Assembly (NCBI GenBank): GCA_965223415.1
Contig: OZ245002.1
Span: 4,576,001 to 4,640,000, forward strand
Reading direction: 5' to 3'
Length of the DNA: 64,000 nucleotides
Source: Myxococcota bacterium
GTDB lineage: Bacteria > Myxococcota_A > UBA9160 > UBA6930
The position numbers and the translations under genes are program-made. Each line of letters starts with the position of its first letter. Positions within the stretch are counted from its first letter, which is position 1. The notes under the pieces were generated by a model. The model was not told the origin of the DNA and ran no database searches. It worked only from the letters and a program-made list of their open reading frames with translations. Shown here one piece after another: positions 2,377-59,874 of this stretch.

Positions 2377-2404
2377 TCAACTCCCGGCGGATCGAGGCCG
2401 ACAC
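2377..2404 (+). promoter_or_regulatory. candidate sigma-28 (FliA/WhiG) promoter
   Basis: TCAA-N16-GCCGACAC upstream of the 2426 ORF. Confidence 0.5.
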
Positions 2405-2425
2405 GTAGGGCAGGAGCGAGCCCAC

Positions 2426-2713
2426 GTGAACACGGACAAGCTGCTGGAGATCGGCGAACGGGGCATCCACCTGCTCTTCGACCGGCAGATGATCTCGGAA
2501 GCCTTCGACCAAGATGCGGATGTGCTCCGTGAGGACATCGCCGGCCGCATCGGCGAGATCCACGGCGCCATCCAGCAGCTCGTCGAGCTCGAGACCCCGG
2601 AGCAGGGCCAACGCTTCGTCGCCCGCCTCGCCCCGTCCGTCCGCCACGTCCTCGTCCTCCTCTACTTCGAGCTCCTCGACGGCCGCCTCCGCCAGAACCC
2701 CACCCTCCACTGA
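2426..2713 (+). CDS. small hypothetical helical protein (95 aa)
   Basis: AGGAG RBS before GTG; typical codon usage; fills the gap between neighbouring genes. Confidence 0.75.
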   Translation: MNTDKLLEIGERGIHLLFDRQMISEAFDQDADVLREDIAGRIGEIHGAIQQLVELETPEQGQRFVARLAPSVRHVLVLLYFELLDGRLRQNPTLH

Positions 2714-2748
2714 CGCATCGGCTCCCCCCTTCGTTCTTTCAACGACGA

Positions 2749-3174
2749 GCCGCTTCGCTTCTCTCGTGGGCATCCAGTCGCCGGGGGTGGGCACAGGCCG
2801 GGCTCCATGGCTCGGCCGTTGCGCGGAGGCCGCGTACGGCCCGCATGGAGGGGTCGCCGCTTCCGGCCTTCGGCCGGCGGCAACCTGAGCGCACGACGAT
2901 CATCGTGCCTGCCTGCGCTTGACTTCCGCCCGACCTGTGCCCACCCCCGGCGAAATGGGCCCCTTGGTCAGCTCGACCGATCGCGGGGCGGGGGGCGGCC
3001 AGCGCGGAAGTCAAGCGCAGGCAGGCAACACGTCCGTCGTCGGCAAGTTCGCCGCCGGCGAAGCCGAGGCGGCGAACCCGCCATGCGTCTTCCTGAGCGG
3101 CCTCGACGCCCCGGCCGAGCCATGGAGCGCTGGCCGCCCCCCGCTCCGCGATCCGCAAGGAGAAGCGAAGTGGC
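2749..3174. repeat. nested palindromic intergenic element, long copy (REPIN/MITE-like or structured RNA)
   Basis: Terminal IR GCCGCTTCGCTTCTC / GAGAAGCGAAGTGGC; inner IR GCTCCATGGCTCGGCCG / CGGCCGAGCCATGGAGC; central perfect 24-bp IR (2906-2929 / 3004-3027); long blocks shared with 27191-27428. Confidence 0.85.
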
Positions 3175-3195
3175 CTTGCTCAGAAAGGGTGGGGG

Positions 3196-6234: not shown

Positions 6235-6401
6235 GTCCCCATCCGTCCGCCAAGGGCGGACGCCTCTCTCACGCGGTCCGCCGGTGGAGGGACGCGGCGG
6301 TGTTGGAATGGGGACCCGGTGGAGACTAGGGGTCGCCCCGGAAAGAGCCAGCGCCGGCACCGCTCGCGGTGCCTCGCGTCCTACGGCACCGTCAGGGCGC
6401 C

Positions 6402-6851
6402 ATGCGCCTCTCCCTCCAGAGCCAGTACGCGATCTGTGGGATGTTCGACCTGGCCTACCACGGCGAGGACGGGCCCGTGCAGGTGCGCGTGATCGGCGAG
6501 CGCCAGCGCATCCCGGGCCGCTACCTCGAGCAGATCTTCCAGCGCCTGCGCAAGGCGGAGCTGGTGCGCGGCAAACGCGGCCCGGGCGGAGGCTACGTGC
6601 TGGCGCGTCCCGCGGCGGACGTGACGCTCCGGGACATCGTGGAGGCCGTCGAAGGCCCCCTCGAGGACTCCCTGGCCCCGGGTCCGCCGCCCCGGGACCG
6701 GGACGTCGCCGAGCGCCCGAGCTTCCTCTGGCCGGAGCTCGCCGAACGGATCGGCCGGGCCCTCGACGTGAGCCTGGCGCGGCTGTGCCGGGAGGCGGCG
6801 GAGGGCGGGGTCGCGCGGGCGAGCGCGGCCAATCGCATGTGGCACATCTGA
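6402..6851 (+). CDS. Rrf2 family transcriptional regulator (CymR-like)
   Basis: YLEQIFQRLRKAELVRGKRGPGGGYVLARP...VEAVEG signature; lacks the IscR Cys triad; ends MWHI. Confidence 0.9.
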   Translation: MRLSLQSQYAICGMFDLAYHGEDGPVQVRVIGERQRIPGRYLEQIFQRLRKAELVRGKRGPGGGYVLARPAADVTLRDIVEAVEGPLEDSLAPGPPPRDRDVAERPSFLWPELAERIGRALDVSLARLCREAAEGGVARASAANRMWHI

Positions 6852-6864
6852 AACCGCCGCCCCA

Positions 6865-8667: not shown

Positions 8668-8715
8668 AACCCGGGTCGGGACCGGGCGTATGGTGTGAGG
8701 CAGGGAGCCCCACCC

Positions 8716-9933
8716 ATGTCCGATCCCGCCCAGACCCACGAGCCCCGCCTGGACGCACCGGCCCTCGATCCGGGCCGCCACGCCGAGATCCACCCCCGCC
8801 CGGGCCTCGCCCTGCTGGTGGCGACCCGCAAGGGCGCCTGGATCCTGCGCCCCGACGGAGAGCGGCGGCGCTGGGAGACCGACGGCCCCCTTTTTCTCGG
8901 CAACATCGTCCATCACTTCCGCCTCGACCCGCGGGACGGCCGCACGCTCCTGATCGCGGCGCGGTCGGGCCACCTCGGGCCCACCGTGTTCCGCTCCCTC
9001 GACGGCGGGAAGAGCTGGGAGGAGTCGGTGCGGCCGCCCATGTTCGCCGGGCCGTCGCCGGCCGGCCGGGAGCGCGCCGTCGAGCAGGTGTTCTGGCTCG
9101 AGCCGGGGCACGCCCGCGAGCCCGAGGTCTGGTACGCGGGGACCGCGCCGGAGGGGCTCTTCCGCAGCGAGGACGCGGGGGTCACCTGGGCCCCGGTCGA
9201 CGGCTGGAATGACCATGCGAGCTGGGACCTGTGGGCCGAGCCCGACGATCTCGAGCAATCGACGCCGGACGGCTCGCCCCTCCACTCCATCAACATCGAC
9301 CCGCGCGACCCGACCCACCTGTACCTGGCCGTCTCGAGCGGCGGTGTGTTCGAGAGCGTCGATCAGGGCAAGGACTGGCGGCCGCTGAACGGCAACGTCG
9401 AGGCGAACTTCCATCCGGATCCGTACCCGGAGGTCGGGCAGGACACGCACCACCTCGCCCAGCATCCCCAGGCGCCGGACGTCCTCTACCAGCAGAACCA
9501 CTGCGGGATCTACCGGATCGAGCGGCCCGCTACCGCGTGGACGCGGATCGGCGACAACATGCCGCGGGAGATCGGCGACATCGGCTTCCCGATCTCGCTC
9601 CACCCGCGCGATCCGGACACGGCCTGGGTGTTCCCGATGGACGGCACCGACGTCTGGCCCCGCACGAGCCCGGACGGCCGACCTGCCGTCTACCGGACCC
9701 GCGACGGCGGCGAGAGCTGGGAGCGCCAGGACCGGGGGCTTCCACCCGAGCAGGCCTGGCTCACCGTGAAGCGCCAGGCCATGGCGGTGGACCAGCGGGC
9801 CCCCGTCGGCGTGTACTTCGGCACCACCAACGGCGACGTCTGGGCCAGCGCCGACGAGGGCGCGAGCTGGCAGTGCATCGCTCCTCACCTGCCCCACGTC
9901 TACGCGGTGGAGGCGGTGGAGTTCGCCCCGTGA
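8716..9933 (+). CDS. BNR/Asp-box beta-propeller protein (sialidase/WD40-YVTN-like)
   Basis: Repeated Asp-box motifs SLDGGKSW, SEDAGVTW, SVDQGKDW, TRDGGESW, SADEGASW; no signal peptide. Confidence 0.88.
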   Translation: MSDPAQTHEPRLDAPALDPGRHAEIHPRPGLALLVATRKGAWILRPDGERRRWETDGPLFLGNIVHHFRLDPRDGRTLLIAARSGHLGPTVFRSLDGGKSWEESVRPPMFAGPSPAGRERAVEQVFWLEPGHAREPEVWYAGTAPEGLFRSEDAGVTWAPVDGWNDHASWDLWAEPDDLEQSTPDGSPLHSINIDPRDPTHLYLAVSSGGVFESVDQGKDWRPLNGNVEANFHPDPYPEVGQDTHHLAQHPQAPDVLYQQNHCGIYRIERPATAWTRIGDNMPREIGDIGFPISLHPRDPDTAWVFPMDGTDVWPRTSPDGRPAVYRTRDGGESWERQDRGLPPEQAWLTVKRQAMAVDQRAPVGVYFGTTNGDVWASADEGASWQCIAPHLPHVYAVEAVEFAP

Positions 9934-10187
9934 AGGTGGCGATCCCCCAGCCGCTGCGGGGCTACACCGGCGCCGACGAGGTCGAAGCCGTCGGCGAATC
10001 GGTGGACGAGCTGCTCCGCGACCTCGACCGGCGCTTCCCGGGCATCCGCTTCCGCATGGTCGACGAGCTGGATCGGCTTCGGCCCCATGTGCGGGTCTTC
10101 CTGAATCGGGAGCGGGTGCGCGACCTCTCCGAGCCGGTGGCGGAGGACGATGAAGTGCAGATCCTCCAGGCCCTCAGCGGGGGGTAA
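9930..10187 (+). CDS. MoaD/ThiS/CysO-family ubiquitin-like protein
   Basis: 85 aa beta-grasp pattern (VKVAIPQPLR...HVRVFLN...DEVQILQALSGG) ending in GG; GTGA overlap with the upstream stop. Confidence 0.92.
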   Translation: MKVAIPQPLRGYTGADEVEAVGESVDELLRDLDRRFPGIRFRMVDELDRLRPHVRVFLNRERVRDLSEPVAEDDEVQILQALSGG

Positions 10188-10213
10188 AGGCCAGCGGCCC
10201 GGTGCGCCGATAG
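10185..10213 (+). promoter_or_regulatory. candidate sigma-28 promoter (leaderless transcript)
   Basis: TAAA-N17-GCCGATAG; ATG 10221 lies 7 nt after the -10 element with no RBS. Spacer is 1 nt longer than in the other copies. Confidence 0.45.
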
Positions 10214-10220
10214 GCCGACC

Positions 10221-10793
10221 ATGGAGCCCTCGATCAAGGGATTCGCCATGGGGCCGGCCATCGCTCGCTTGCGGGACCTGCGGGCCGAGGGCCGGGTGTC
10301 CGATCTCGCGTGGAGCCGTCTCGAGGCGGAGGACGTCAGGCTCGTCGAGCAGGGCGCGGCGCTCACCATCTGGTATCCGGTCGCCAGCCAGGGCCGTCTC
10401 CTCGATGCGCTGCGCACGGCCCTCGGCGGCACCGACGCCGGGTTGCGGGAGTTCGCACGGGAGACCGCGCGCGAGGTCTTGGCGGCACCGGCCCTGACGG
10501 TCCTCCTGGAGGGGACGTCGTTCCTGGGCGTGAAGCTCGGGCCCACCCTGGTCCGCATGGCCCGCTTCGGCTTCAGCTTCGGGACCTGGCGCTTCGAGGG
10601 CGAGGACCTGACCGCCTTCCGGGTCGTCGCCGACGGGATGGAGCCGATGCCGGAAGGCGTCTGTCTGAACATCCAGGGCTTCATCGAGCACCTGGCGGGC
10701 CACGTCACCGGCGAGGACGTGCGCTGCACCTGGACGCGCCCGTCCGCGTCGCGGCTGATCTTCGACGGCCAGCAGCGCGTCACGCCCGGCTGA
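10221..10793 (+). CDS. hypothetical protein (190 aa), resembles myxobacterial DUF2378/V4R-like proteins
   Basis: Good codon usage; SIKG..., WYP and ...NIQGFIEHL pattern; family call is tentative. Confidence 0.65.
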   Translation: MEPSIKGFAMGPAIARLRDLRAEGRVSDLAWSRLEAEDVRLVEQGAALTIWYPVASQGRLLDALRTALGGTDAGLREFARETAREVLAAPALTVLLEGTSFLGVKLGPTLVRMARFGFSFGTWRFEGEDLTAFRVVADGMEPMPEGVCLNIQGFIEHLAGHVTGEDVRCTWTRPSASRLIFDGQQRVTPG

Positions 10794-10877
10794 CCCCGCG
10801 GGGTGGGTGAAATCCCCGAGGGTGTTCCGTAGACTGCCGCCGCCCCACTCACAGGGGCCGAGCTCCCCAGGACGGCC

Positions 10878-11381
10878 GTGAGCGGACGCATCGACGTGAA
10901 CCGGTCGCTGCCTCCGGTGGCAGTGCCCGCCAGAGTATGGAACGAGCTTCGCGGGCACGCCCTGGAGACGATTCCGGAGGAGTGCTGCGGGCTCCTCCTG
11001 GGGAAGCACGCCGGCCGCTACGAACAGGTGGCGCGGTGTCGCAACGAGATGACGCGACTTCACCAGGAGGATCCGATCTCCCATCCCCGAGATGGGCGGG
11101 AGGCGTTCCACATGAACGAGATGGACTACGTGCGCATCCAGGAGCAGGCGGAGAGCGAGAGCCTCCAGGTGACCGGCGTCTACCACTCCCACGTGGGCGC
11201 CGGCGCCTACTTTTCGGAGCTCGATCAGGCCTTCGCCCTCCAGCCCCTGTTCCCGTTCCCCGGGGCGGACCACCTGGTGATCTCGGTGGTGGAGCATCGC
11301 GTGCGCGACATCGCGGTGTTCCGGCGCCTGGACACGTCGGAGGCCTTCGAGGGCCGGGCCCTGGCACCGGAGGCGCCGTGA
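10878..11381 (+). CDS. JAB/MPN+ (M67) metallopeptidase, Mec-like
   Basis: PEECCGLLLG and JAMM motif YHSH-x7-S-x2-D (YHSHVGAGAYFSELD). Confidence 0.9.
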   Translation: MSGRIDVNRSLPPVAVPARVWNELRGHALETIPEECCGLLLGKHAGRYEQVARCRNEMTRLHQEDPISHPRDGREAFHMNEMDYVRIQEQAESESLQVTGVYHSHVGAGAYFSELDQAFALQPLFPFPGADHLVISVVEHRVRDIAVFRRLDTSEAFEGRALAPEAP

Positions 11382-19330: not shown

Positions 19331-21397
19331 CTACCCCTCGTCCGCGGCCTGGGCCTTGGCCTCGGCGATGATCTTGTCGCGTTCGCTCGCCGGGACCTCG
19401 TCGTAGTGATCGAACTCCATGTGGAAGGCCCCCTTCCCACCGGTCAGGCTGGTGAGGGCACTCGCGTACTCCAGCATTTCGGCCATGGGGACCTCCGCCT
19501 TGATCACCGCCGTATGGCCCCGGCTCTCGGTGGTCTGGACCCTTCCGCGGCGGCTGGAAACGTCGCCCATGACGTCTCCCACGAAGTCGTCCGGAACGGA
19601 CACCTCCACCCGCATGACCGGTTCCAGGAGGGTGGGCTTGGCCTTCTCCAGAGCCGCCTTGAAGCCGAAGGAGCCCGCCAGCTTGAAGGCCATCTCGTTG
19701 GAATCGACGGAATGGTGCTTTCCGTCGATGCAGCGGACCTTGACGTCCACCACGGGGTAGCCGGCAAGGGGGCCCACGTCCGCAGACTCGAGGACGCCCT
19801 TCTCGACGGCGGGAATCAGCCCCCGGGGGATGGCGCCGCCCACGATCTCGTCGCTGAACTCGAGCCCTTCCCCGCGGGGTTTCGGCTCCACCGTGAGGTA
19901 GCAGACGCCGAACATGCCCTTGCCGCCGGTCTGCTTCTTGAGCTTGCCCTCCACGTTCTCGGCCTTGCCCTTGATTGTCTCCCGATAGGGGACCTTCGGC
20001 GTCTTCAGGTCCACGTCCACCTCGTAGAGCCGCTTCAGCTTCTGGACGGTGATGCGGATGTGCAGCTCGCCCATGCCGGTGAGCAGGAACTCGCCGGTTG
20101 CCGGGTCCCGGCCGAGCTGGAGCGTCGGGTCCTCTTCCACCAGCCGCCCGAGGGAAGTGAAGACCTTGTCCTCGTCGCCCTTGGAGGTGGCGGAGATCGC
20201 GTAGGACAGGACGCCCTGGGGAATCGGGATCGGCTCCAGGGCGACGCCCCCCTTTTCCTGGCAGAGCGAGTTGCCGGTGTGGACGTCCTTCAGCTTGGCC
20301 ACGGCCACGATGTCGCCGGGGCCGGCCTCGGGCACGTCCACGTGCTCCGCACCGCGCAGGAGGAGCAGCTTGCCGAGCCGCTCCTTGGCGTCGCGGGTGG
20401 CGTTCAGGATGGGCGTATCGCCCTTGATCGTCCCGGACACGACCCGGAACACCGAGAGGGTTCCGGCGTAGCGATCGATCACGGTCTTGATCACCCGCGC
20501 GGTGAAGGGTGCGGCCGGATCGGCGGTGACCTCGATCTCGTCCCCGTCGAGGGTCGCCTTCCAGGCGCCGCCGCGATCCTCCGGCGAGGGCAGCAGCTGC
20601 TGGATCGCCCGCAGACAGGAGAGGGCGCCCACCTCGAGGGGGGCGGCGCCACACAGCACGGGCACCAGGCTGCGGCTGCGGGTTCCGGTGACCAGGCCGC
20701 GCAGGACGTCTTCGTCGGAGAGCTCGCCCTCTTCGAGGTACTTCTCGAGCAGCTCGTCGTCGCTCTCCGCAGCGGCCTCGACCAGCTCCGCTCGCGCCGC
20801 CTCCGCCTCGTCGGCCAGCTCCGCCGGGATGTCCGCGTCCTTCCCGTCGACCACGGCCTTCATGGCCAACAGGTCGACGACGCCCGACAGGCCTTCGCCG
20901 CTTCCGATGGGCAAGCAGAGCTTGATCGGGTTGATCTCCAGGTCCTTCAGGCTGGCCACCGCGGCGTCGAGATCGGCCCGGTCGCTGTCCATGCGGTTCA
21001 CGAAGGCGACCACCGGCACGCCGGCGCGAGCACTCGCCCGCCACATGCTCTCGGTGCCCACCTTCGCGCCGTCCCCGGCCGACACCACCAGCACGGCGCC
21101 GTCCACGCCGTGGAGCAGCACCTGGCCGTCGCCCTGGAAGTTCGGGTCGCCCGGCGTGTCCGCCAGGGTGAGGTGCAGGTCGTTCCAGTCGAAGCCGTAG
21201 AGGGCGGACGAGAGGGTGTGCTTGCGCTCCTGCTCCTCCGGCGTGGAATCGAGCACGGAGCTGCCGTCCGCCGGCGAGCCGAGGGCGTTCGTCGCGCCGG
21301 CCACGTGCAGGAGGCTCTCGCCCAGGGAGGTCTTGCCGTCCGCTGTGTGTCCGATGAGCGCGAAGGATCGCGTGTTGGCGACAGCGGTGTTCTGCAT
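19331..21397 (-). CDS. fusA: elongation factor G paralog (EF-G2-like)
   Basis: Full five-domain EF-G (GMGELH, VPYRET, KKQTGGKGMFG, HHSVDSNEMAF, LLEPVM) with a divergent G domain; lies outside the str operon. Confidence 0.92.
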   Translation of the reverse strand: MQNTAVANTRSFALIGHTADGKTSLGESLLHVAGATNALGSPADGSSVLDSTPEEQERKHTLSSALYGFDWNDLHLTLADTPGDPNFQGDGQVLLHGVDGAVLVVSAGDGAKVGTESMWRASARAGVPVVAFVNRMDSDRADLDAAVASLKDLEINPIKLCLPIGSGEGLSGVVDLLAMKAVVDGKDADIPAELADEAEAARAELVEAAAESDDELLEKYLEEGELSDEDVLRGLVTGTRSRSLVPVLCGAAPLEVGALSCLRAIQQLLPSPEDRGGAWKATLDGDEIEVTADPAAPFTARVIKTVIDRYAGTLSVFRVVSGTIKGDTPILNATRDAKERLGKLLLLRGAEHVDVPEAGPGDIVAVAKLKDVHTGNSLCQEKGGVALEPIPIPQGVLSYAISATSKGDEDKVFTSLGRLVEEDPTLQLGRDPATGEFLLTGMGELHIRITVQKLKRLYEVDVDLKTPKVPYRETIKGKAENVEGKLKKQTGGKGMFGVCYLTVEPKPRGEGLEFSDEIVGGAIPRGLIPAVEKGVLESADVGPLAGYPVVDVKVRCIDGKHHSVDSNEMAFKLAGSFGFKAALEKAKPTLLEPVMRVEVSVPDDFVGDVMGDVSSRRGRVQTTESRGHTAVIKAEVPMAEMLEYASALTSLTGGKGAFHMEFDHYDEVPASERDKIIAEAKAQAADEG

Positions 21398-24178: not shown

Positions 24179-26188
24179 TCAGTCGTTTCCCTTGAGCTTG
24201 CGGATCTCTTCCTGGATCAGGGTCTCCGCCATCTTGGGGATCACCTCCCAGGCCACGCGCTCGATGCGCTCGACCGCCTCCTTGATGAGCCGCTCGGACA
24301 GGTCGCCGAAGGCGTCCCAGGCCATCTTCTCGACGGCATCGTGGACCTGCCGCTCGAGCTCCGGGGACAGGACCGGCGGGGCCGCATCCGAGGGCGCCTC
24401 CACGGGCGCCGTCTGGGTGACCGCGTGGGTCTCCGGATCCGCGGGCCAATCCGGCTCGGTCGGCAGCGCCAGCGGCGCTTCGGACGCCCCGGCCCGGCTC
24501 AGGTCCGAGGAGGACACGTCGTAGTCACGGGCCGATTCCGGGTCGAGGGTCGCGTGGGCCGGAGCCGCGTCGAAGCCGCCGGGTCCCTCGAAGGGGTCCG
24601 GCTCGCCGGCGTCCGCAGCAGCCAGCGGCTCCGGGGATGCCTCGGGCGCGCTCGGAGCGCCGAACTCGAAGACCGTGGGCGCGTCCGGGAGCGGGGGCTC
24701 CATGGTGGGTGCGGCCGCCGCGGCCGGCTCGTCGAGCAGGGTGGTCGCCCCGTTCGGATCGGAGAGGCCGAAGGGCTCGGCCGCTTCGGCGACCTGCCCG
24801 ACCGGCGTTTCCGGCACCACGTCGTCCAGCAGGAGCGTGCCCTCGCCCGGGGCGGGCACGGGCTCCGCCAGCGAAGCGTCGACCGCCAGCTCGCCGTGCT
24901 GCACCCCGTCGTCTTCGGCTAGGAGGTCCGGGGCTTCCCCGATCTCCAGGTTCGAGCTCCTGTCGGGCTGGCCCGCCTCGGCGAAGTCCCGTCCGCCGGC
25001 CTCGACGAAGTCCGGCTCGCCGAACGGGTCGGAGGCCAGCACATCGGCCTCGGCGACCGGGGCGCCCGCCGGCGCGACGAGATCGGCTCCGGTCTCGCCG
25101 TCGCCCGAGAGCAGGTCGACGCCGGCTTCGTCGCTGCGGTCGAGCAGGTCGATGCCCGCCTCGCCTCCGCCGGCTGCGCCGAGCAGGTCGACGCCGGCGG
25201 ACGCTCCGGGCTGGGGCGGGAGGAACTCCGCCTCGCCCGCGGGCGCCGTCAGCAGGTCGTCGGTCGGCGCCAGCAGGTCCGACTCGGCCAGCGGGTCGCC
25301 CGCCGGGCTCATCGGCTCCGACTCCGCCGAGGCGTCGCCGGCCGGGGCCAGCAGGTCCGATTCGGCCAACGGGTCGCCCGCCGGATCCATGATGTCCGAT
25401 CCGGCGATCGGGTCTCCCGCCGGGTTCATCCGGTCCGATCTAACGATCGGGTCTCCCGCCGGGTTCATCCGGTCCGATCTAACGATCGGGTCTCCCGCCG
25501 GATCCATCCGGTCCGATCCGGTGATCGGGTCTCCCGCCGGCGCGAGGAGGTCGGACTCCGCGAGCGGATCGCCGGCCGGGGCGGCCGGTGCCAGGGGCTC
25601 GCCGCCCACGAGCACCGTCGTCGGCGGGCTCTCGACGGGCTCGGCCGTCGCCGGCTCCGGGCTGGCCGGGACGGGGCGCGGCGCCTCGTTCACGCCGCTC
25701 GGAGCGGTCACCTCGTCCTCGAAGAGGTCGTAGGCCTCGCCGCCGTCGCCGGCGGGGACCATGCCGGTCAGTCCGAGGGGATCCGGCTCGTCGGCGACGG
25801 GCGAGACGCCGGCCGTCGCCCGGGAGGCGAGGAGCCCGTTCACCTGGTCGACGAGCGCCTGCGCCTCGAAGGGCTTGGTGATGTGACCGTCGGCGCCCAC
25901 CTCGTTGGCCTGGGCCTCATCGAAGGTCTCGAAGGTGCCGGTCAGCAGGAGCACCGGCGTGTCCGCCAGCTCGGAATCGGCCTTGATCGCGTGACACACC
26001 TCGTATCCGGAGAGCCCCGGCATCACGACGTCCGCCAGCACGAGGTCCGGTCGGATCTCCCGCGCCCGGGTCAGGGCATCGTCGCCGTTGTCCACGGTCA
26101 CGATCTGCACGTCTTCGTTGGCGAAGCTGATGCCGACGACCTTCTGGATCGTGACACTGTCGTCCGCGAGAAGCAGGGTCTTGGGCAT
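24179..26188 (-). CDS. romR: RomR-family response regulator (REC - long acidic linker - RomR C-terminal helix)
   Basis: MPKTLLLADDSVTIQKVV...LLLTGTFETFDE REC domain; C-terminal IERVAWEVIPKMAETLIQEEIRKL matches the RomR-C pattern. Confidence 0.85.
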   Translation of the reverse strand: MPKTLLLADDSVTIQKVVGISFANEDVQIVTVDNGDDALTRAREIRPDLVLADVVMPGLSGYEVCHAIKADSELADTPVLLLTGTFETFDEAQANEVGADGHITKPFEAQALVDQVNGLLASRATAGVSPVADEPDPLGLTGMVPAGDGGEAYDLFEDEVTAPSGVNEAPRPVPASPEPATAEPVESPPTTVLVGGEPLAPAAPAGDPLAESDLLAPAGDPITGSDRMDPAGDPIVRSDRMNPAGDPIVRSDRMNPAGDPIAGSDIMDPAGDPLAESDLLAPAGDASAESEPMSPAGDPLAESDLLAPTDDLLTAPAGEAEFLPPQPGASAGVDLLGAAGGGEAGIDLLDRSDEAGVDLLSGDGETGADLVAPAGAPVAEADVLASDPFGEPDFVEAGGRDFAEAGQPDRSSNLEIGEAPDLLAEDDGVQHGELAVDASLAEPVPAPGEGTLLLDDVVPETPVGQVAEAAEPFGLSDPNGATTLLDEPAAAAAPTMEPPLPDAPTVFEFGAPSAPEASPEPLAAADAGEPDPFEGPGGFDAAPAHATLDPESARDYDVSSSDLSRAGASEAPLALPTEPDWPADPETHAVTQTAPVEAPSDAAPPVLSPELERQVHDAVEKMAWDAFGDLSERLIKEAVERIERVAWEVIPKMAETLIQEEIRKLKGND
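25268..25579 (-). repeat. coding tandem repeat, 8 x 39 bp (13 aa PAGDPxxxSDxxx) in the romR linker
   Basis: Units PAGDPLAESDLLA, PAGDPITGSDRMD, PAGDPIVRSDRMN (two identical), PAGDPIAGSDIMD, PAGDPLAESDLLA, PAGDASAESEPMS, PAGDPLAESDLLA. Confidence 0.92.
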
Positions 26189-26459: not shown

Positions 26460-27188
26460 ATGATCCTGAAAGCGGCAGCGGCCAGCGATGTCGGCCTGCG
26501 GCGCAAGCACAACGAGGACCGCTACGCCCTGGCGCCCGAGCTGGGCCTCTACGTCGTTGCCGACGGCATGGGCGGGCACACCGCCGGTCAGGTCGCCGCC
26601 GAGCTGGCCGCCGAGGCTTCGCTGCGGGCGATCCAGACCCTGGAAGGCGCCGCCGCCACCCTGACCGAGAAGCTCCGCTACGCGGTCGCCTCCGCGAACC
26701 GCTCGATCTTCCAGACTGCCCAGCAGCGGCCCGAGTACGCGGGCATGGGCACCACCCTCGTGGTGATGCTCGCCGAGGGCGAGCGAGCGGCGCTGGCTCA
26801 CGTGGGCGACAGCCGCGCCTACCGCGTGCGAGCCGGCAAGATCCGCCAGCTCACCGACGACCACTCGATCGTCGGTGAGCTCCTGCGCCGCAACGAGATC
26901 AGCGAGGACGATGCCCGCGAGCATCCCCACCGCCACGTGCTGACCCGGGCGCTGGGGGTGCGCGAGAGCGCGGAGCCGGACCTGGCCGAGATCTCGCCGG
27001 CCATCGGCGATGTGTTCGTGCTGTGCTCGGACGGGCTCACGAACCACCTCGAGGACCACGAGATCGCGAAGCTCGTCACCGACCTCGAGGACCTCCAGGA
27101 GCTCTGCGACGCCCTCGTCGACCTGGCCAACGCGCGCGGCGGCGAGGACAACACGACGGTCGTCGCCGCGAGGTGCTGCGGCGACTGA
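26460..27188 (+). CDS. PP2C/Stp1-family Ser/Thr protein phosphatase
   Basis: SDVGLRRKHNED, VADGMGGH, GMGTT, AHVGDSRAY, LCSDGL, GGEDNTT; GGGGAG RBS. Confidence 0.95.
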   Translation: MILKAAAASDVGLRRKHNEDRYALAPELGLYVVADGMGGHTAGQVAAELAAEASLRAIQTLEGAAATLTEKLRYAVASANRSIFQTAQQRPEYAGMGTTLVVMLAEGERAALAHVGDSRAYRVRAGKIRQLTDDHSIVGELLRRNEISEDDAREHPHRHVLTRALGVRESAEPDLAEISPAIGDVFVLCSDGLTNHLEDHEIAKLVTDLEDLQELCDALVDLANARGGEDNTTVVAARCCGD

Positions 27189-27454: not shown

Positions 27455-28222
27455 CTACTCGCGGTCGAGGGTGTTCTTCAGCTTGCTGCGGAGGCGGAGG
27501 ACCGACTTGGTGTGGATCTGGCACACCCGGGATTCGGTGATCCCGAGGATGTTGCCGATCTCCTTCATGTTCAGGTCCTCGTAGTAGTAGAGCGAGATGA
27601 CGAGGCGCTCCTTCTCGGGGAGGACCGCGATGGTGTCCGCGATCAGGCCCTTCATCTCGTGGAGCTTGAAGGTCGCGAACGGGTTCTCGGCGTTCACGTC
27701 CTCGACGATGTCGGAGAAGCTGCCCGAGCGGTCGCCGTCCTGGCCGCCGCCGCGGATCTCCTCGAGGTTGACGAGCGAGATGCCCCGCACCTGGTTCATC
27801 AGCTCGTGGAACTTCTCGATCTGCAGCCCGAGGGAGTCGGCGACCTCCTCCTCGTTGGCCTGGCGGCCGAGGCGCTGCTCGACCTCGCCGTAGGCCCGCT
27901 CGAGCTTGCGGCTCTTCTGGCGGACGCTTCGCGGCACCCAGTCGAGGGAGCGCAGCTGGTCGAGGATCGCGCCCTTGATCCGGAACTCGGCGTAGGTCTT
28001 GAACTTGCAGTTCTTGGCCGGGTCGTACTTCTCGATCGCGTCCATCAGCCCGATGACGCCCGTGTTGTGCAGGTCGTCCAGGTCGATGTGCGAGGGAAGG
28101 CGCACGGCGATGCGGTTTACGATGTAACGGATGAGCGGCGTGTGCTCGAGGACGATGGCTTCCTTCAGGTCGCCCGGGATGTCCCCATGTTTCTCTCTCG
28201 CGTCGCGCAGCTGCGCCTCCAT
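27455..28222 (-). CDS. fliA: RNA polymerase sigma-28 factor (FliA/WhiG family)
   Basis: RLPSHIDLDDL..GVIGLMDAIEKYD, FKTYAEFRIKGAILDQLRSLDWVPRSVR, LYYYEDLNMKEIG..LGITESRVCQIH; GGAGGA RBS before ATG 28222. Confidence 0.96.
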   Translation of the reverse strand: MEAQLRDAREKHGDIPGDLKEAIVLEHTPLIRYIVNRIAVRLPSHIDLDDLHNTGVIGLMDAIEKYDPAKNCKFKTYAEFRIKGAILDQLRSLDWVPRSVRQKSRKLERAYGEVEQRLGRQANEEEVADSLGLQIEKFHELMNQVRGISLVNLEEIRGGGQDGDRSGSFSDIVEDVNAENPFATFKLHEMKGLIADTIAVLPEKERLVISLYYYEDLNMKEIGNILGITESRVCQIHTKSVLRLRSKLKNTLDRE

Positions 28223-28320: not shown

Positions 28321-28337
28321 AGCAGGCGCCGTGCCAA
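28321..28337 (-). promoter_or_regulatory. sigma-54 (-24/-12) promoter upstream of fliA
   Basis: Minus strand TTGGCACGGCGCCTGCT, i.e. TGGCAC with exact GG-N10-GC spacing, about 100 nt upstream of the start. Confidence 0.75.
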
Positions 28338-28603: not shown

Positions 28604-29992
28604 CTACGTTTCGGGCGTCAGGCCCTTCTTCTTGATCTTCTCGATCAGGGTGGTGCGGTTCAGGCCGAGGAGCTGGGCGGCCTGGTTTTTGTTCCAGTGG
28701 GTCTGCTCGAGGGCCTGGAGGATGAGGTCGGCTTCGAAGCGATCCACGACCTCGTTGAAGGAGAGGCCGGCCTCGCTCACCCGGGGCTGGCCGTCCGGGC
28801 TCCGGGGCAGGCGCCGCAGCTCCTCCGGCAGGTGCTCGACGCCGATCTCGCCTTCTCCCCGCATCACCACGAGCCGCTCGATCAGGTTCTCGAGCTCGCG
28901 CACGTTGCCCGGCCAGGCATGGCGGGCCAGGCTCTCGAGCGCCTCCTCCGAGAGCCGGCAGGGCGAGGCGCCCAGGTTCGCCGCGCAGCGCTCCAGGAAG
29001 TGGTGGGCCAGGAGCGGAACGTCTTCCCGGCGCTCGCGGAGCGGGGGCACCTGGATGGGAATCACGTTCAGGCGGTAGAAGAGGTCCTCGCGGAAGCGCT
29101 TCTCCTCGATCGCCTTGCGGAGATCCTGGTTGGTGGCGGCAATCACCCGCACGTCGACGCGCTCGGTGCGGGAGGAGCCGACCGGCTCGAAGGTCTTGTC
29201 CTGGAGCACCCGGAGCAGCTTTACCTGGAGGTTCGGGCTCATGTCGCCGATCTCGTCCAGGAAGATCGTGCCGCTCTCGGCGGCGGCGAAGCGGCCCTCG
29301 CGCTGGGAGACCGCGTTGGTGAACGCTCCGCGCACGTGGCCGAAGAGCTCGCTCTCGAGCAGCTCCTCCGGGATCGCCCCGCAGTTGACGGTCACGAGGG
29401 GCCGATCGGCCCGGGGGCTGTTGTAGTGGATGGCCCGGGCGACCACTTCCTTGCCGGTGCCGCTCTCCCCTGTGACCAGCACGGTGCTCTCGGTCTCGGT
29501 GACCCGGCGCACCATGGCCAGGACCTCTCGCAGCCCGCTGCTGGCTCCGACGATGTTGTCGAAGCGGTAGCGGTCGTGGAGCTGGTGCTGGAGGCGGCGG
29601 TTCTCGGCCTTGAGCCGCCCGTGCTCGATGGCCTGGCCCACGAGTCGGCGCAGCACGTCCTGCTGGGGCCCGTCCATGGCCTTCTCGAGGTACCAGTAGG
29701 CTCCCGCCCGAAGAGCCTCGACGCTGGCCTCGGCGCCGCCGTAGCCGGTGACCACGATGCAGGGCAGCTCCGGGTGCAAGTCACCGATCTGGCGGACCAG
29801 CTCCAGGCCGCTGATGCCCGGCATCTTGACGTCGCACATCACCAGATCCAGGGGTCCGCTGGTGACGGCTGCCATCGCCTCACTGGCGTCCTTGGCGGAC
29901 GACACCTGGTAGCCGGCACGGGTCAGCACCCGTTCGACCGCCCGGCGGTAGAGCTCGTGGTCGTCGACGACCAGGACGTGGGGCTTGCCCAG
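28604..29992 (-). CDS. sigma-54-dependent response regulator (REC-AAA+-HTH)
   Basis: VLVVDD...DVKMPG REC domain; GESGTGKE, ESELFGHVRGAFTNA, FLDEIGD, WPGNVRELEN; HTH NKNQAAQLLGLNRTTL. Start uncertain (CTG 29992 with RBS, or TTG 30025). Confidence 0.92.
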   Translation of the reverse strand: MGKPHVLVVDDHELYRRAVERVLTRAGYQVSSAKDASEAMAAVTSGPLDLVMCDVKMPGISGLELVRQIGDLHPELPCIVVTGYGGAEASVEALRAGAYWYLEKAMDGPQQDVLRRLVGQAIEHGRLKAENRRLQHQLHDRYRFDNIVGASSGLREVLAMVRRVTETESTVLVTGESGTGKEVVARAIHYNSPRADRPLVTVNCGAIPEELLESELFGHVRGAFTNAVSQREGRFAAAESGTIFLDEIGDMSPNLQVKLLRVLQDKTFEPVGSSRTERVDVRVIAATNQDLRKAIEEKRFREDLFYRLNVIPIQVPPLRERREDVPLLAHHFLERCAANLGASPCRLSEEALESLARHAWPGNVRELENLIERLVVMRGEGEIGVEHLPEELRRLPRSPDGQPRVSEAGLSFNEVVDRFEADLILQALEQTHWNKNQAAQLLGLNRTTLIEKIKKKGLTPET

Positions 29993-30160: not shown

Positions 30161-31614
<1,454 letters not shown>

Positions 31615-31615
<1 letters not shown>

Positions 31616-32826
31616 TGTCCTGTTTCGGAAAAAAATACGCAAAATAGTGCGAACTCCCAACGTGCAGGGGGCATCTTACCGGCATCACGTTGGGGGGACG
31701 TATGGCGAATCGTGGCCGGCCCAAGACGCCGATTGTGCTGACGGATGCGGAGCGAGAAGAGCTCCAGACGCACGCCAGAAGGCGGAAGAGCGCGCATCAG
31801 TTGGCCTACCGCTCGCGCATTGTATTGCTCGCAGAGCAGGGGCTGACGAATGGGGAAATCGCGGAACGCGTAGGCAAGCGACGAGAGACCGTCGGGATCT
31901 GGCGCAAGCGCTTCGTCGAAAAGCGGATCGCTGGGCTCTACGACGAGCCCAAGCCGGGAGCGCCCCGGACGGTGACCGACGAGCAGGTCGATGAGGTCGT
32001 GCGCTTGACGCTAGAGGAAACGCCCACGGGAGCGACGCACTGGTCCGTTCGCCTGATGGCGAAGCGGGTAGGCCTCCCGACGACGACGGTTCATCGCATC
32101 TGGCGAGCATTCAGCCTCCAGCCGCACCGAGTCGAGCGCTTCCGGCTCTCCAACGATCCCCATTTTGTGGACAAGGTGGTGGATATCGTCGGCCTGTACA
32201 TGTCTCCGCCGGCGAACGCGGTCGTCCTCTGCGTCGACGAGAAATCGCAGATCCAAGCGCTGGAACGGAACCAGCCTGTCTTGCCGATGCAACCGGGCCG
32301 GGCGGAGCAGCGCACACACGGATACCTACGCCATGGCACGACGACACTCTTTGCCGCACTCAACATCGCAACGGGCGAAGTGATCGGATCCCTCCATCGC
32401 CGGCACCGCACGGAGGAGTTCCTGAAGTTCCTCAGGACGATCGACGACAACGTACCCGCCGAACTCGACATCCATCTCGTGCTCGACAACTACACCACGC
32501 ACAAGACGAAGCGAACTCGGAGCTGGCTCGCGCGCCACCCTCGTTTCCACGTGCACTTCACCCCGACGTACAGCTCATGGCTGAATCAGGTCGAGCGGTT
32601 CTTTGCACTCATCACCGAGCGTTGCATCCGTCGCGGCGTGCATCGCAGCACGAGGGCGCTCGAGAACGACATCCGGAGCTTCCTGAAGACGACGAACGAC
32701 GATCCGAGACCCTTCGTCTGGACCAAGACCGCGGATCAGATCCTCGCGAGTGTGCGGCGCTACTGTGGTCGCGTCCTCGACGTCCACTCCGATTCTAATC
32801 GAGTGGTTTCTTCTGGAACAGGACAC
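31615..32826 (+). mobile_element. IS630-family insertion sequence
   Basis: Terminal IRs GTGTCCTGTTTCGGA / TCTGGAACAGGACAC, flanked by duplicated TA (31613-14, 32827-28) within CTAG; lower GC than the flanks. Confidence 0.95.
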
Positions 32827-32829
32827 TAG
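31702..32829 (+). CDS. IS630 transposase (intact single ORF)
   Basis: HTH region, then [47 protein letters not shown] (DDE). Confidence 0.96.
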
Positions 32830-56701: not shown

Positions 56702-56716
56702 GCGGGCCGGGTCTCG

Positions 56717-57796
56717 CTACTGCGGGACCCGGGACAGGCGCCAGCTCCCCAGCGCGAAGAACACGATCAGCGTGAGCCAGGGGGCCAGGGCGGCGGAGAA
56801 CTCCCCCCGCGCGCCGAAGCTGGCGCCGTACTCCCGCACCAGCAGGAAGACGAAGAGCAGGCCCACCCCCTGGAGGGCGGGCAGGGCGAGGCTGCGGGTC
56901 TGCTCCACCGCCAGGCCGAGGGGGATGGCCAGCAGGGCGAAGAGGATCACCAGGAAGGGGACGGTGAGCCGACTGTGGAGGAGTGCGCGGGCGCGCCCCG
57001 GATTGCCCCCGTGGTTGAGCACCGCGGATACGTACTCGGCGAGGGTACCGAGGGGAAGGACGACCAGCTCCGCCTGTTGGAGGTGGGGCGGGCGGTCCTC
57101 GCCGAGCTCGAGCACGATGTCCGACGCCCGCTCGGTGACGGGCGGACGCTTCGCGTCCACCGGGTCGAAGGTGCGCACGGTTGCCCCGCGGAAGCGCCAC
57201 TCGTTGGGGGCGAGGCGGGCGGCTTCGCGGGCGTGGATCAGGCGGACGAGGCGGCCCGCCTCGTCGCGCTCGAAGACCCGCACGTCGCGCACCGTTTCGC
57301 CCTGGGGCCGTGGATCGCGGATGTTGTAGATGAAGCGGCCCGTGTGGTACCAGATCGTGCCCGAGCGCAGGGTCACTTCACCCACGGAAGACCCGCTGTT
57401 CGAGTTCAGGGCCCGCGCGGCGCGCAGGGCCACGGTTTCGTTCAGCACCAGGGCCAGGAGCGCGATGACCGCCGAGAGGGCGAAGATCGGCAGCAGGGCG
57501 CGCAGCGGTGACACCCCTCCGGCCTTCACGGCCACGATCTCGCGGTTCCGGGCCGCCTGCCCTACGGCGACGAAGGTGGCGGTGAAGGTGGCGACCGGGA
57601 TCAGGTAGGGAAGGTAAGTGGCCGCCGAGCGCTGCAGGAGCAGGCCGATCGCGCCGAGAACCGTCTCTTCGGCCTCGATCACGTCGCCGAGATTCAAGAG
57701 CATGTCGACGACGAGCAGAACGAGCGCGAGAATCAGCAGCGATCCGACGAAGGCCGTCAGGAAGCGCACAGCGAGATAGCGCCAGAGCGTGGGCAT
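56717..57796 (-). CDS. LptF/LptG-family LPS export permease
   Basis: TLWRYL N-terminus, three TM, EIVAVKAGGVS motif, periplasmic beta-jellyroll region, three TM. Confidence 0.88.
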   Translation of the reverse strand: MPTLWRYLAVRFLTAFVGSLLILALVLLVVDMLLNLGDVIEAEETVLGAIGLLLQRSAATYLPYLIPVATFTATFVAVGQAARNREIVAVKAGGVSPLRALLPIFALSAVIALLALVLNETVALRAARALNSNSGSSVGEVTLRSGTIWYHTGRFIYNIRDPRPQGETVRDVRVFERDEAGRLVRLIHAREAARLAPNEWRFRGATVRTFDPVDAKRPPVTERASDIVLELGEDRPPHLQQAELVVLPLGTLAEYVSAVLNHGGNPGRARALLHSRLTVPFLVILFALLAIPLGLAVEQTRSLALPALQGVGLLFVFLLVREYGASFGARGEFSAALAPWLTLIVFFALGSWRLSRVPQ

Positions 57797-57816
57797 CGGG
57801 CGCGGGAGTCTAGCGA

Positions 57817-58767
57817 TTGCGGGTGGTTCGAGGGAGTGAGGCGCTCGGCGAGCCTCTGGCGGGCTCGGTCCTGACTCCCGGCAACTTCGACGGCCTCCAC
57901 GTGGGCCACCGGGCGATCATGGACACGGTGATCTCCCGGGCCCGGGCGCTCGGCGGCGCGGCGGTGGTCTACACCTTCGATCCCCACCCCCGGAAGGTGC
58001 TCCACCCGGCCCGGGCACCCCGGCTGCTCACCACCCTGGAGCAGAAGCTGGAGCTGCTGGAGGCGCAGGGGGTCGACGTGGCGATCGTCGAGCCCTTCAC
58101 CCGGGAGTTCGCGCGCCTGCCGGCCGAGCGCTTCGCGCGGGAGGTCCTCCACGAGCGGGTCCGGCCCCGGGAGGTCTACGTCGGCTACGACTTCCACTAC
58201 GGCCGGGACCGGGAAGGGTCGATGCGCACCCTGACGGAGCTGGGTCCCCATCTGGGCTTCGCCGTGACCATCATCCCGGAGGTCACGGTGGGGGAGCGGG
58301 ACGTCAACTCCACACGGATCCGGATGCTGTTGGAGGAGGGCAAGGTGGAGGAAGTGGGGCTCCTGCTGGATCGGCCCTACACCGTGCGCGGACGCGTGGC
58401 GGTCGGCGACCGGCGCGGGCGCAGCCTGGGCTTTCCCACCCTGAACCTCGATCCCGAGAGCGAGATCCTGCCCGCCGCCGGCGTGTACGCCGGCCGCGTG
58501 CGCTTCCTGGACGAGGGAGAGCCCGGCTCGGGCAGCTCCTGGCCCGCGGTCACGAACGTGGGCCGCCGGCCCACCTTCAAGGCGGACGATCCGGTGCTCG
58601 CCGAGGCCCACCTGCTCGATTTCGAGGGCGACGTCTACGGCCGGCGCATCGACATGGGCTTCGAGCACTTTCTGCGGCCCGAGCAGAAGTTCGCCGACGT
58701 GGAGGCGTTGAAGGCTCAGATCCGCCGGGACGCGGACGCCGCGCGGGAACGCCTGGAATCCGCATGA
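57817..58767 (+). CDS. ribF: riboflavin kinase/FAD synthetase
   Basis: GNFDGLHVGH, TFDPHP, VGYDFHYG, NSTRIR, GRSLGFPTLN, NVGRRPTF, EAHLLDF. Confidence 0.97.
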   Translation: MRVVRGSEALGEPLAGSVLTPGNFDGLHVGHRAIMDTVISRARALGGAAVVYTFDPHPRKVLHPARAPRLLTTLEQKLELLEAQGVDVAIVEPFTREFARLPAERFAREVLHERVRPREVYVGYDFHYGRDREGSMRTLTELGPHLGFAVTIIPEVTVGERDVNSTRIRMLLEEGKVEEVGLLLDRPYTVRGRVAVGDRRGRSLGFPTLNLDPESEILPAAGVYAGRVRFLDEGEPGSGSSWPAVTNVGRRPTFKADDPVLAEAHLLDFEGDVYGRRIDMGFEHFLRPEQKFADVEALKAQIRRDADAARERLESA

Positions 58768-59849
58768 GCCAGGCCGCCTCCACCCGCGGTGCCGTTCGGC
58801 GCTGGGCCGATCCCCGCCTCTGGATCGGCCTGGTGATCACCGTGGTGGCGCTCGCTTTCGCCTTCCGCGACGTCGACTTCGCCGAGCTCGGCCGCCAGAT
58901 GGCCAGGGCGGACATGGCCTGGCTGCTGCTGCCGTCGGCGGCCGGCTACGTGCTCTGCGTGTGGAGCCGGGCCCTGCGTTGGCGGCACCTGCTGCGCGCC
59001 TTCGGGGCCATCGAGACCGGGCCGCTCTTCCGGGCCACGGCGGTCGGCTACATGGCCAACAACCTCTTCCCCTTCCGCCTCGGCGAGCTCGCGCGCTCCT
59101 GGTTCCTCGCGCGGGAGACCGGTACCTCCGGCGCCGCCGTCTTCGGCACCGTGATCGTCGAGCGGGTGATCGACGCGGTGGTCGTGCTGGCCCTGGCCGC
59201 CCTCGTGATCGGGAGCCAGGGCGCCCAGGCCACCGGCCTGGATGCTCGGCAGGCCCTCGTGGCCCTGTCGATCGTGGCCTCGGTCCCGCTGGTCGGGGTG
59301 GTGGCCCTGCGTCAGGCCCCGGACTTCTTCATCGGCCTGGTCCGCTGGGGGCTGGGCTGGGCCCCCCAGGGCCTGGTCGACCGGATCAGCCTGACCCTCG
59401 ACCAGATCGCCCAGGGGCTGCGCGGGATCCGGGATGGCCGGGACCTCTTCTGGGTCCTCTTCCACACGCTGACTTTCTGGCTGATCATCAACCTCGTTCC
59501 CTACTACGCGGCCCTCCGCTCCCTGGGGGTCGACCTCGGGGGCTTCCTGGCCGATCTCCACGGCGGGCTCTCGCTGATGGTGTGGGTGGGGGCAGCCGTG
59601 GCGCTGCCTTCCGCCCCGGGCTTCGCCGGGACCTACCACGCCGCCTGCCGGGCGGCCCTGGTCCCGCTCGGGGTGTCCGAGGAGGTGGCCCTGGCCCTCG
59701 GAACCCTGGCCCACATCGTCTTCTGGGTCACCCTGACCGCCCTCGGCCTGTCGGTGCTCCGCGTTCGCGGCACCCGGCTGGACGAGACCCTGGCCGGCGC
59801 CGAGGCCGAGGCCGGCGAGGCTCCCAGCCCGAGCGGGGCTCCGGAGTAA
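58764..59849 (+). CDS. UPF0104/lysylphosphatidylglycerol-synthase TM domain (flippase-like) protein
   Basis: RALRWRHLL, GYMANNLFPFRLGELAR, ERVID, PSAPGFAG. Confidence 0.88.
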   Translation: MSQAASTRGAVRRWADPRLWIGLVITVVALAFAFRDVDFAELGRQMARADMAWLLLPSAAGYVLCVWSRALRWRHLLRAFGAIETGPLFRATAVGYMANNLFPFRLGELARSWFLARETGTSGAAVFGTVIVERVIDAVVVLALAALVIGSQGAQATGLDARQALVALSIVASVPLVGVVALRQAPDFFIGLVRWGLGWAPQGLVDRISLTLDQIAQGLRGIRDGRDLFWVLFHTLTFWLIINLVPYYAALRSLGVDLGGFLADLHGGLSLMVWVGAAVALPSAPGFAGTYHAACRAALVPLGVSEEVALALGTLAHIVFWVTLTALGLSVLRVRGTRLDETLAGAEAEAGEAPSPSGAPE

Positions 59850-59874
59850 AGATCCCTCCGGGTCCCGCCGATAA
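59847..59874 (+). promoter_or_regulatory. sigma-28 (FliA/WhiG) promoter upstream of pilB
   Basis: TAAA-N16-GCCGATAA; both elements match the consensus exactly. Confidence 0.75.

Follow-up and report, generated by a model that had tools for sequence, protein, structure and literature searches.

The subject of this analysis is a 64,000-nucleotide (nt) stretch of DNA (the window, G000:C1:4576001-4640000) from G000, a genome assembled as one contig (5.83 Mb, 71% G+C). The window carries six short two-box motifs and a gene for a sigma factor of the FliA/WhiG family, and our main finding is that the six motifs are in all likelihood working promoters of one class, cT(C/A)AAG-N15-GCCGAT(A/G), most likely read by that sigma, a reading to which we give a probability of about 0.8. 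An earlier, sequence-only reading of the window had proposed a sigma-28 regulon aimed at type IV pili and polarity genes rather than flagella. The six motifs on which it was built were all present in the sequence exactly as it had described them, and gene calls combined with NCBIfam matches confirmed that each faces the gene named as its target. The predicted promoters, with their scores on the weight matrix described below, are:

2377-2404, plus strand: promoter of a gene for a 95-amino-acid (95-aa) protein; TCAA-N16-GCCGACAC; 18.6 bits
10185-10213, plus strand: promoter of a 190-aa gene in leaderless arrangement, 7 nt from the ATG at 10221; TAAA-N17-GCCGATAG; 16.7 bits
26266-26293, minus strand: promoter of a romR-like gene; TCAA-N16-GACGATAG; 21.4 bits
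26387-26414, plus strand: promoter of a PP2C gene; TCAA-N16-CCCGATAC; 19.4 bits
30126-30153, plus strand: promoter of the sigma-54 activator (bacterial enhancer-binding protein, bEBP) gene bEBP-b in leaderless arrangement, 7 nt from the ATG at 30161; TCAA-N16-GCCGATGA; 21.2 bits
59847-59874, plus strand: canonical sigma-28-type promoter of pilB-pilT-pilC; TAAA-N16-GCCGATAA; 19.9 bits

All six contain the CGA core, and the pilB site is the sole 12/12 match in the genome to TAAA-N14-17-GCCGATAA. The TAAA-type -35 box known from FliA/SigD/WhiG promoters occurs at pilB and at the 190-aa gene, and the usual -35 box in this genome proved to be TCAAG.

Genome-wide enrichment and promoter geometry

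That the motifs were not due to chance had been argued from the six sites, and the argument was borne out once a weight matrix had been built and the genome scanned. The opposing possibility, that the six are chance matches in GC-rich DNA or ordinary housekeeping promoters, draws on the degeneracy of the loosest form of the pattern, T[AC]AA ... CGA[TC], but every control spoke against chance. Intergenic matches to T[AC]AA-N15-17-GCCGATAA at 11 or more of the 12 positions numbered 23 toward gene starts and one toward gene ends, compared with a mean of 1.3 and a maximum of 4 in 20 dinucleotide-preserving shuffles; at 10 or more of 12, there were 112 toward gene starts, 14 toward gene ends and 26.8 in shuffles. 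The matrix, seeded with 23 genomic sites and taken through three iterations to 196 training sites in G000, converged on the class given above, with the spacer between TCAA and GCCGAT at 16 nt in 175 of the 196. Its -10 box has a nearly invariant core (C 0.99, G 0.99, A 0.98) with softer flanks (G 0.72, C 0.84, T 0.74), and its -35 box reads T 0.98, C 0.85 or A 0.10, A 0.86, A 0.79 and G 0.72. Matrix sites faced gene starts rather than gene ends by 178 to 7 at 16 bits or more, by 133 to 4 at 18 or more and by 81 to 0 at 20 or more, and a gene-blind scan of the genome at 18 bits or more found 28 sites deep in coding sequence (10.2 Mb, both strands) versus 146 in 1.5 Mb of non-coding and gene-edge sequence. 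The strict form TCAA-N16-GCCGAT occurred 40 times in the genome, versus twice for the pattern read backwards. As for housekeeping promoters, G000 has TTGAC-N17-19-TANNNT as a class of its own (60 sites toward gene starts against 3), and the matrix of the sigma-28-type class shows no preference for T following the -10 box, so that a housekeeping origin is improbable too. Together with the retention of all six sites in relatives, described below, these results leave chance or housekeeping promoters with a negligible share of the probability.

The position of the sites relative to genes added a second line of evidence. Across the 178 sites of at least 16 bits, the gap that separates the -10 octamer from the independently called start codon showed a sharp peak at 7 nt (n = 28), with 9 sites at 6 nt, 5 at 8 nt, 9 at 9 nt, 5 at 10 nt and at most one at each other value from 0 to 14; 56 of the 178 have their start codon 6-10 nt past the -10 box. 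In the stricter set of 142 sites, i.e., those of the 173 genomic matches of at least 18 bits that have a gene start no more than 350 nt away and are not deep within a gene, 44 are 6-9 nt from the start codon. A fixed gap of 7 nt implies that transcription would begin at the start codon itself, giving a leaderless mRNA. It also bears on whether the two boxes might be a transcription-factor site, or some other conserved DNA element, instead of -35 and -10 boxes. Bipartite conserved boxes can also be operators, and our evidence is that of sequence; an operator, however, would have no reason to keep a fixed 7-nt gap to the start codon, and the near-constant spacer and the 133 to 4 orientation bias are equally at odds with one. 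We consider an operator highly improbable.

One further site of 17.7 bits (19476-19503, minus strand) lies deep within an EF-G-like gene and some 208 nt before the start (19268) of the gene that follows on the same strand, and may be an internal promoter or a chance match.

Conservation in relatives

Upstream DNA from relatives was scored with the G000 matrix at a threshold of at least 16 bits, with the same sequences reversed as the control; since the relatives are kin, the counts that follow overstate the number of independent events. The motif was kept in front of both genes that the sequence-only reading had singled out for comparison. A site was present 87-152 nt upstream of pilB in 29/29 relatives (control 0/29), with boxes that read TAAAG or TCAAG plus GCCGATAA across 12 family-level groups, TAAAG being the form in most relatives, and upstream of the romR-like gene at 60 of 66 loci (control 0/66), where the boxes were kept and the spacers differed. 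The remaining window sites were similarly retained: upstream of the PP2C gene at 62 of 66 loci (control 1/66), upstream of bEBP-b at 19 of 20 (control 0/20), within 200 nt upstream of the 95-aa gene at all 25 (control 1/25), many of them 7 nt from the start codon, and upstream of all 18 homologues of the 190-aa gene (24-34% identity; control 0/18), one locus with too short an upstream region having been dropped. Outside the window, mglB of the mglBA pair had a site in 28 of 29 relatives (control 0). The other sigma-54 activator gene of the window, bEBP-a, had none at 20 loci (control 0). Overall, spacers vary freely among genomes and the two boxes stay.

The bases immediately following the pilB -10 box (ccgggcgggttcgcag, window 59875-59900; loci L176-L204) are also conserved in most relatives, and this stretch could be a putative 5' leader element or the binding site of a regulator.

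Content of the regulon

The genes behind the 142 sites give an outline of what the promoter class would control. The first downstream gene was scanned against Pfam (E 1e-8 or better) for 138 of them; the other four are window genes, whose identities come from NCBIfam, and the window PP2C site had dropped out of the set through an over-extended gene call. The 138 targets include 9 PilZ genes, 10 genes with GGDEF and/or EAL domains, 4 T2SSE ATPases in addition to the window pilB, and 5 DUF4388 genes, one of them shared with PilZ. There are also 12 genes with receiver domains, 5 with histidine-kinase ATPase domains, 3 FHA genes, 2 chemoreceptors, 2 Ser/Thr kinases, 2 sigma-54 activators plus that of the window, DivIVA, MreB, a bactofilin and assorted metabolic and envelope genes, and 42 targets had no Pfam match. 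An MglB-like Roadblock gene is among them, and the gene next downstream encodes MglA (344.5 bits to 6H17). Two of the categories were tested for enrichment: 9 of the 22 PilZ genes in the genome (25 domain matches) are targets, compared with 142 of 5459 genes (Fisher p 1.6e-9), and of the T2SSE ATPase genes, 9 in all, 5 are immediately preceded by a site (Fisher p 1.3e-6) and 2 more come next downstream on the same strand. Only 2 of the 142 sites are in the flagellar cluster of the genome. The proposal that a sigma-28-type promoter controls pilBTC, the RomR-like polarity regulator and associated signalling is thus supported by enrichment, by conservation and by the addition of mglBA, but as a description of the regulon it was too narrow, because approximately 140-180 promoters rich in PilZ, GGDEF/EAL, T2SSE ATPase and unassigned genes make the regulon too broad for a label of pili and polarity.

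Two pentapeptide-repeat genes (G000:C1:5382838-5383386, plus strand, and 5765211-5765759, minus strand) have the same length and identical Pfam scores, and each lies 9 nt behind an 18.3-bit site; they are probably a duplicated segment that includes the promoter.

The genes facing the six sites in the window are as follows:

2426-2713, plus strand: 95-aa protein, function unassigned; no NCBIfam or Pfam match
10221-10793, plus strand: 190-aa protein of a Myxococcota family; no NCBIfam or Pfam match
24179-26188, minus strand: RomR-like response regulator, 669 aa; Pfam match to Response_reg only
26460-27188, plus strand: Stp1/IreP-type PP2C Ser/Thr phosphatase; NF033484, 262.7 bits (cut-off 230)
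30161-31615, plus strand: sigma-54 activator bEBP-b, a predicted sigma-28-type target; NtrC/AtoC-family matches
59967-64000, plus strand: pilB, pilT and pilC by NCBIfam, pilC running past the window edge

In the last of these, pilB matches TIGR02538 at 821 bits, pilT matches TIGR01420 at 483.5 bits and pilC matches NF052606 at 604.5 bits, which is below the cut-off of 700. The designation RomR-like is by architecture: in the translation, a receiver domain is followed by a long repeat region rich in Pro, Ala and Asp and by a C-terminus that is helical and conserved, and the part that separates these two ends includes tandem repeats of about 13 residues (PAGDPI.RSDRMN / PAGDPLAESDLLA). The 95-aa gene was found in 25 of the 41 genomes searched, G000 included, and the neighbours of its product in the Atlas were hypothetical proteins of Bdellovibrionota and Myxococcota at scores below 0.9, a lead only. 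For the 190-aa protein, the Atlas returned hypothetical Myxococcota clusters at 0.94-0.95 and a weak lead to V4R.

Two neighbourhoods in the window are worth recording. The 190-aa gene stands in a row (9930-11381) between a MoaD/SAMP1-like ubiquitin-like gene (9930-10187) and a JAMM "desampylase"-like gene (10878-11381), and the three may form a small-protein-modifier system. Just 3' of bEBP-b is an IS630-family transposase gene (31702-32829) whose 1128 nt are shared at 100% identity with a copy in the flagellar cluster (G000:C1:2137637-2138764); based on this identical copy and on the 12 occurrences in the genome of a 60-mer from the gene, the element looks like an active insertion sequence.

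The sigma factor and its own control

The sigma gene of the window and the elements that would control it occupy the minus strand between the PP2C gene and bEBP-b:

27455-28222, minus strand: fliA, FliA/WhiG-family sigma; TIGR02479, 278.9 bits (cut-off 189.6), model positions 2-224 of 224
28322-28336, minus strand: predicted sigma-54-type promoter of fliA, TGGCACGGCGCCTGC, about 100 nt upstream of fliA and the only exact match in the window
28604-29929, minus strand: sigma-54 activator bEBP-a, directly upstream of fliA; NtrC-family matches, synteny kept in relatives

The nearest solved structures to the product of fliA were Streptomyces WhiG (6PFV, 238.6 bits) and Escherichia coli FliA (6PMI, 190.9 bits). 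Its 80 best relatives in the species collection, all of them from metagenome-assembled genomes labelled Myxococcota or Deltaproteobacteria (some of the labels being discordant), are 80-95% identical to it, a degree of conservation that may hint at an essential role tied to a phase of the life cycle, and relatives also keep the gene order, with activator-b pointing leftward, activator-a and fliA rightward, PP2C leftward and the romR-like gene rightward. TGG[CT]A-N7-TGC was present upstream of fliA at 77/77 relatives' loci, versus 1/77 in the reversed control, which points to a sigma-54-dependent step ahead of fliA. By its position, bEBP-a is the candidate activator of that promoter.

Autoregulation is common among alternative sigmas. 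A 16.1-bit site (28608-28635, minus strand) was considered as an autoregulatory promoter of fliA and discounted, as it sits in the last codons of bEBP-a and its likeness in relatives tracks the protein sequence (IKKKGL..PE).

Flagella and the distribution of the sigma

The sequence-only reading had stressed that the window encodes a FliA/WhiG sigma with no flagellar or flgM gene. This is true of the window, but a complete set of flagellar genes lies elsewhere in the genome, at a distance of 2.4 Mb:

About 2.115-2.164 Mb of G000: complete flagellar cluster (motAB, fliLMNOPQR, flhBAFG, flgFAHI, flgNKL, csrA-fliW, fliC, fliDS, flgC, fliEFGHIJK, flgDE)

Upstream of fliC is a sigma-54-type promoter (TGGCACCCGCCTTGCA), with a best sigma-28-type score of 6.5 bits; flgF likewise has a sigma-54-type promoter (TGGCACGCGTCTTGCT), and the best sigma-28-type site of motA reaches only 11.6 bits. 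No FlgM was recognised in the genome, the best match to PF04316 being 16.5 bits (E 0.067, cut-off 25), and FlgM is so short and divergent that it could have been missed; the sub-threshold match lies in a 197-aa TetR-like protein and was rejected as FlgM.

Two observations were made within the cluster. A 101-aa protein with no Pfam match (G000:C1:2144478-2144783, minus strand), encoded behind a 22.3-bit sigma-28-type site, is by its size, position and promoter a candidate FlgM-like anti-sigma. The intergenic DNA (G000:C1:2104600-2164200; L012-L014) contains recurrent CTGAAAC/GTTTCAG-like words, often paired (e.g., cgtttcagatcgaaacgcggcggtttcgatctgaaacg), near sigma-54-type promoters, and these may be a putative binding site of a flagellar master activator.

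Gene distribution was followed across 61 genomes of the order, G000 included, where absence from an incomplete genome means only that a gene was not found. FliA was present in 52, FlhA in 20 and flagellin in 19, and FlhA was not found in 33 of the genomes with FliA, a group of which 18 have a completeness of 90% or more and a contamination of 5% or less. Genomes of this kind keep both the pilB promoter and the enrichment of the motif (32 vs 0 in G038 and 38 vs 1 in G048). Among 29 flagellin loci, that of G000 included, a sigma-54-type promoter precedes 21, and a sigma-28-type site of at least 16 bits precedes 4; the four are paralogues in G039, G036 and G050. In distant kin, then, some flagellins remain behind the motif, as expected of a true FliA. 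The claim that the regulon was aimed elsewhere "rather than" at flagella therefore survives in part: the complete flagellar set in the genome counts against it, while the sigma-54-type promoters of flagellin and flgF and the 33 genomes with FliA and no FlhA found count in its favour.

No FliA orthologue was found in five small genomes (G008, G010, G017, G019 and G024), which also lack PilB and MglA; their best sigma matches are 28-32% identical in four, and G024 had no match at E 1e-40. By our own count, G follows TCAA in 7 of 46 strict-pattern matches in these FliA-less genomes, versus 14 of 18 in G037. A sixth genome, G016, appeared to have the motif and no FliA, and was set aside because a fliA fragment (residues 177-254, 85% identity) is on its pilB contig.

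Which sigma reads the promoters

From the sequence, we infer that the window sigma reads the motif, that transcription would start at the positions indicated by the -10 boxes, and that a cascade from sigma-54 to sigma-28 to a sigma-54 activator is in place. The attribution to this sigma has several supports. The motif matches the sigma-28 consensus, and fliA of the window is the only match to TIGR02479 above the cut-off in the genome; the targets include types typical of FliA (chemoreceptors, PilZ and EAL proteins, and flagellin paralogues in relatives); relatives without FliA are also without PilB, MglA and the TCAAG signature; and there is a precedent in Bdellovibrio, alongside an unusually high conservation of the sigma itself.

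The principal alternative is that the promoter class is real and is read by another sigma, the window FliA having a smaller regulon. Candidates exist, as five paralogous, group-3-like sigmas score 108-116 bits on TIGR02479, below its cut-off, and G008 (91% complete), with no FliA orthologue, nevertheless has 15 strict-pattern matches against 0 in the control. The G008 matches, however, show no TCAAG bias, and the consensus is an established hallmark of sigma-28 (cf. PMC3627812), most of all in the form found at pilB, GCCGATAA with TAAAG. Flagellin paralogues in relatives carry the same motif, and no second enriched sigma-28-like class was seen in G000 that could serve the window sigma instead. 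We therefore judge a different sigma to be unlikely.

The paralogous sigmas and G008 are not the only points that weigh against our reading. fliA itself lacks a convincing sigma-28-type site, 16 bits being reached at just 4 of 73 loci, so that there is no sign of autoregulation, and the flagellar cluster holds two good sigma-28-type sites, at a DUF5610 gene (23.4 bits) and at the 101-aa gene, because of which the regulon is not wholly divorced from flagella. G000 supplied the training sites of the matrix as well as its first test, the cross-genome tests being independent of its training; the relatives are not mutually independent genomes and are fragmentary metagenome assemblies; and gene positions came from a codon-bias, six-frame competition caller of our own writing, which misplaced some starts, over-extending PP2C and putting the start of the 190-aa gene at 10248 instead of 10221.

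With the window FliA as the reader, the mechanism would run as follows. Sigma-54 and an activator, probably the adjacent bEBP-a, would drive transcription of fliA. The sigma-28 holoenzyme would recognise cT(C/A)AAG-N15-GCCGAT(A/G), which is the sigma-28 (FliA/WhiG) consensus except that C can replace A in the -35 box, and would start about 7 nt past the -10 box at some 140-180 promoters, at around a third of which the start would coincide with the start codon and yield a leaderless mRNA. Its targets would be pilBTC and other PilB/PilT-like ATPases, the polarity module of mglBA and the RomR-like protein, PP2C, a second sigma-54 activator, chemoreceptors and a large share of the cyclic di-GMP (c-di-GMP) network (PilZ, GGDEF and EAL proteins). 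Flagellar structural genes, where present, would be mainly driven by sigma-54, and the sigma is retained by relatives in which flagellar genes were not found.

A bolder version, that sigma-28 is no longer flagellar in this order and now commands, as a master switch, surface motility and a c-di-GMP lifestyle independently of flagella, is one that we entertain only tentatively. It would take in the type IVa pilus motors, MglAB and RomR, the PilZ, GGDEF and EAL proteins and the leaderless mRNAs, under the same three-step cascade and with a restraint other than FlgM. Candidates for that restraint include a c-di-GMP-dependent anti-sigma like the RsiG of WhiG, a phospho-switch acting via the syntenic PP2C, and a small conserved sigma-28-dependent protein such as the 95-aa protein.

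Comparison with known systems

Sigma-28 is the textbook late-flagellar sigma, and to our knowledge little is known of how the expression of motility and polarity genes is coordinated, even in Myxococcus. The comparative evidence suggests that one sigma-28 and its promoter type would run, order-wide, the type IV pilus motor, the MglA/MglB/RomR-like polarity switch and much of the c-di-GMP network. It also yields a testable promoter code with a list of about 140 target promoters, and ties leaderless mRNAs to one alternative sigma. No literature linking FliA to a Myxococcota regulon or to mglA or romR promoters was found among the papers listed by a limited full-text search, which did not extend to subscription journals and supplements, and the combination of leaderless mRNAs with a single alternative sigma was not met in a limited look at the literature that included no search aimed at leaderless transcripts.

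The closest known system is that of Bdellovibrio bacteriovorus, in which TTAAG-N16-CCGATA was found at 92 of 140 mapped attack-phase promoters and attributed to FliA (PMC3627812). In PMC5430801, an E. coli reporter showed activation of the Tad pilus operon by Bdellovibrio FliA, fliA could not be deleted, the flagellins are FliA targets and pilA is named among the genes not regulated by fliA. The promoter architecture is near-identical, being T(C/A)AAG-N16-CCGAT(A/G) here with C for T/A at the second base of the -35 box, and in both systems sigma-28 reaches well beyond flagellar genes, to more than 90 promoters that include pilus genes (of the Tad/Flp type IVb in Bdellovibrio). The differences are that here the motif is found at mglBA, the romR-like gene and pilBTC, the operon of the type IVa motor, that the orthologous flagellin is under a sigma-54-type promoter, and that the leaderless arrangement is frequent, the word "leaderless" not occurring in PMC3627812. 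Here, moreover, the sigma persists in most relatives with flagellar genes not found in them, and the lineage is one of uncultured Myxococcota. With Bdellovibrio as the first, this would be a second, independent case of a FliA that has grown into a global regulator.

In E. coli and Salmonella, the class-3 flagellar consensus is TAAA-N15-GCCGATAA (cited in PMC3627812), FliA is subject to the FlgM checkpoint, and the targets of FliA include chemoreceptors, the PilZ protein YcgR and the EAL protein PdeH. The promoter consensus and the presence of chemoreceptor, PilZ and EAL targets are shared with the system described here, in which, by contrast, no FlgM was found, fliA is 2.4 Mb from the flagellar cluster, flagellin lacks the motif and the regulon is several-fold larger. 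Sigma-28 factors that operate without flagella are known from Streptomyces (WhiG) and Chlamydia, both with small regulons. As with WhiG, which is held by RsiG with c-di-GMP, and with chlamydial sigma-28, a sigma of the family persists in genomes in which flagellar genes were not found; the window sigma is nearer to WhiG than to FliA among solved structures, and there is again a link to c-di-GMP, here via the targets. What differs is the targets, which here belong to motility and polarity instead of to sporulation or late development.

Hierarchies in which sigma-54 precedes sigma-28 in flagellar assembly are known in Vibrio, Pseudomonas and Campylobacter (cited in PMC3627812). The likeness to these extends to a fliA behind a sigma-54-type promoter beside a sigma-54 activator, to flagellar structural genes of sigma-54 type and, in some relatives, to flagellin paralogues split between sigma-54 and sigma-28, whereas the predicted output of the cascade is here mostly non-flagellar and the cascade is kept where no flagellar genes were found. 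Based on these comparisons, the system appears to be of a known kind, an expanded FliA regulon, well supported by comparative sequence evidence, and it differs from the Bdellovibrio case in its predicted targets, the sigma-54-type flagellin, the retention of the sigma where no flagellar genes were found, the leaderless arrangement and the lineage in which all of these occur.

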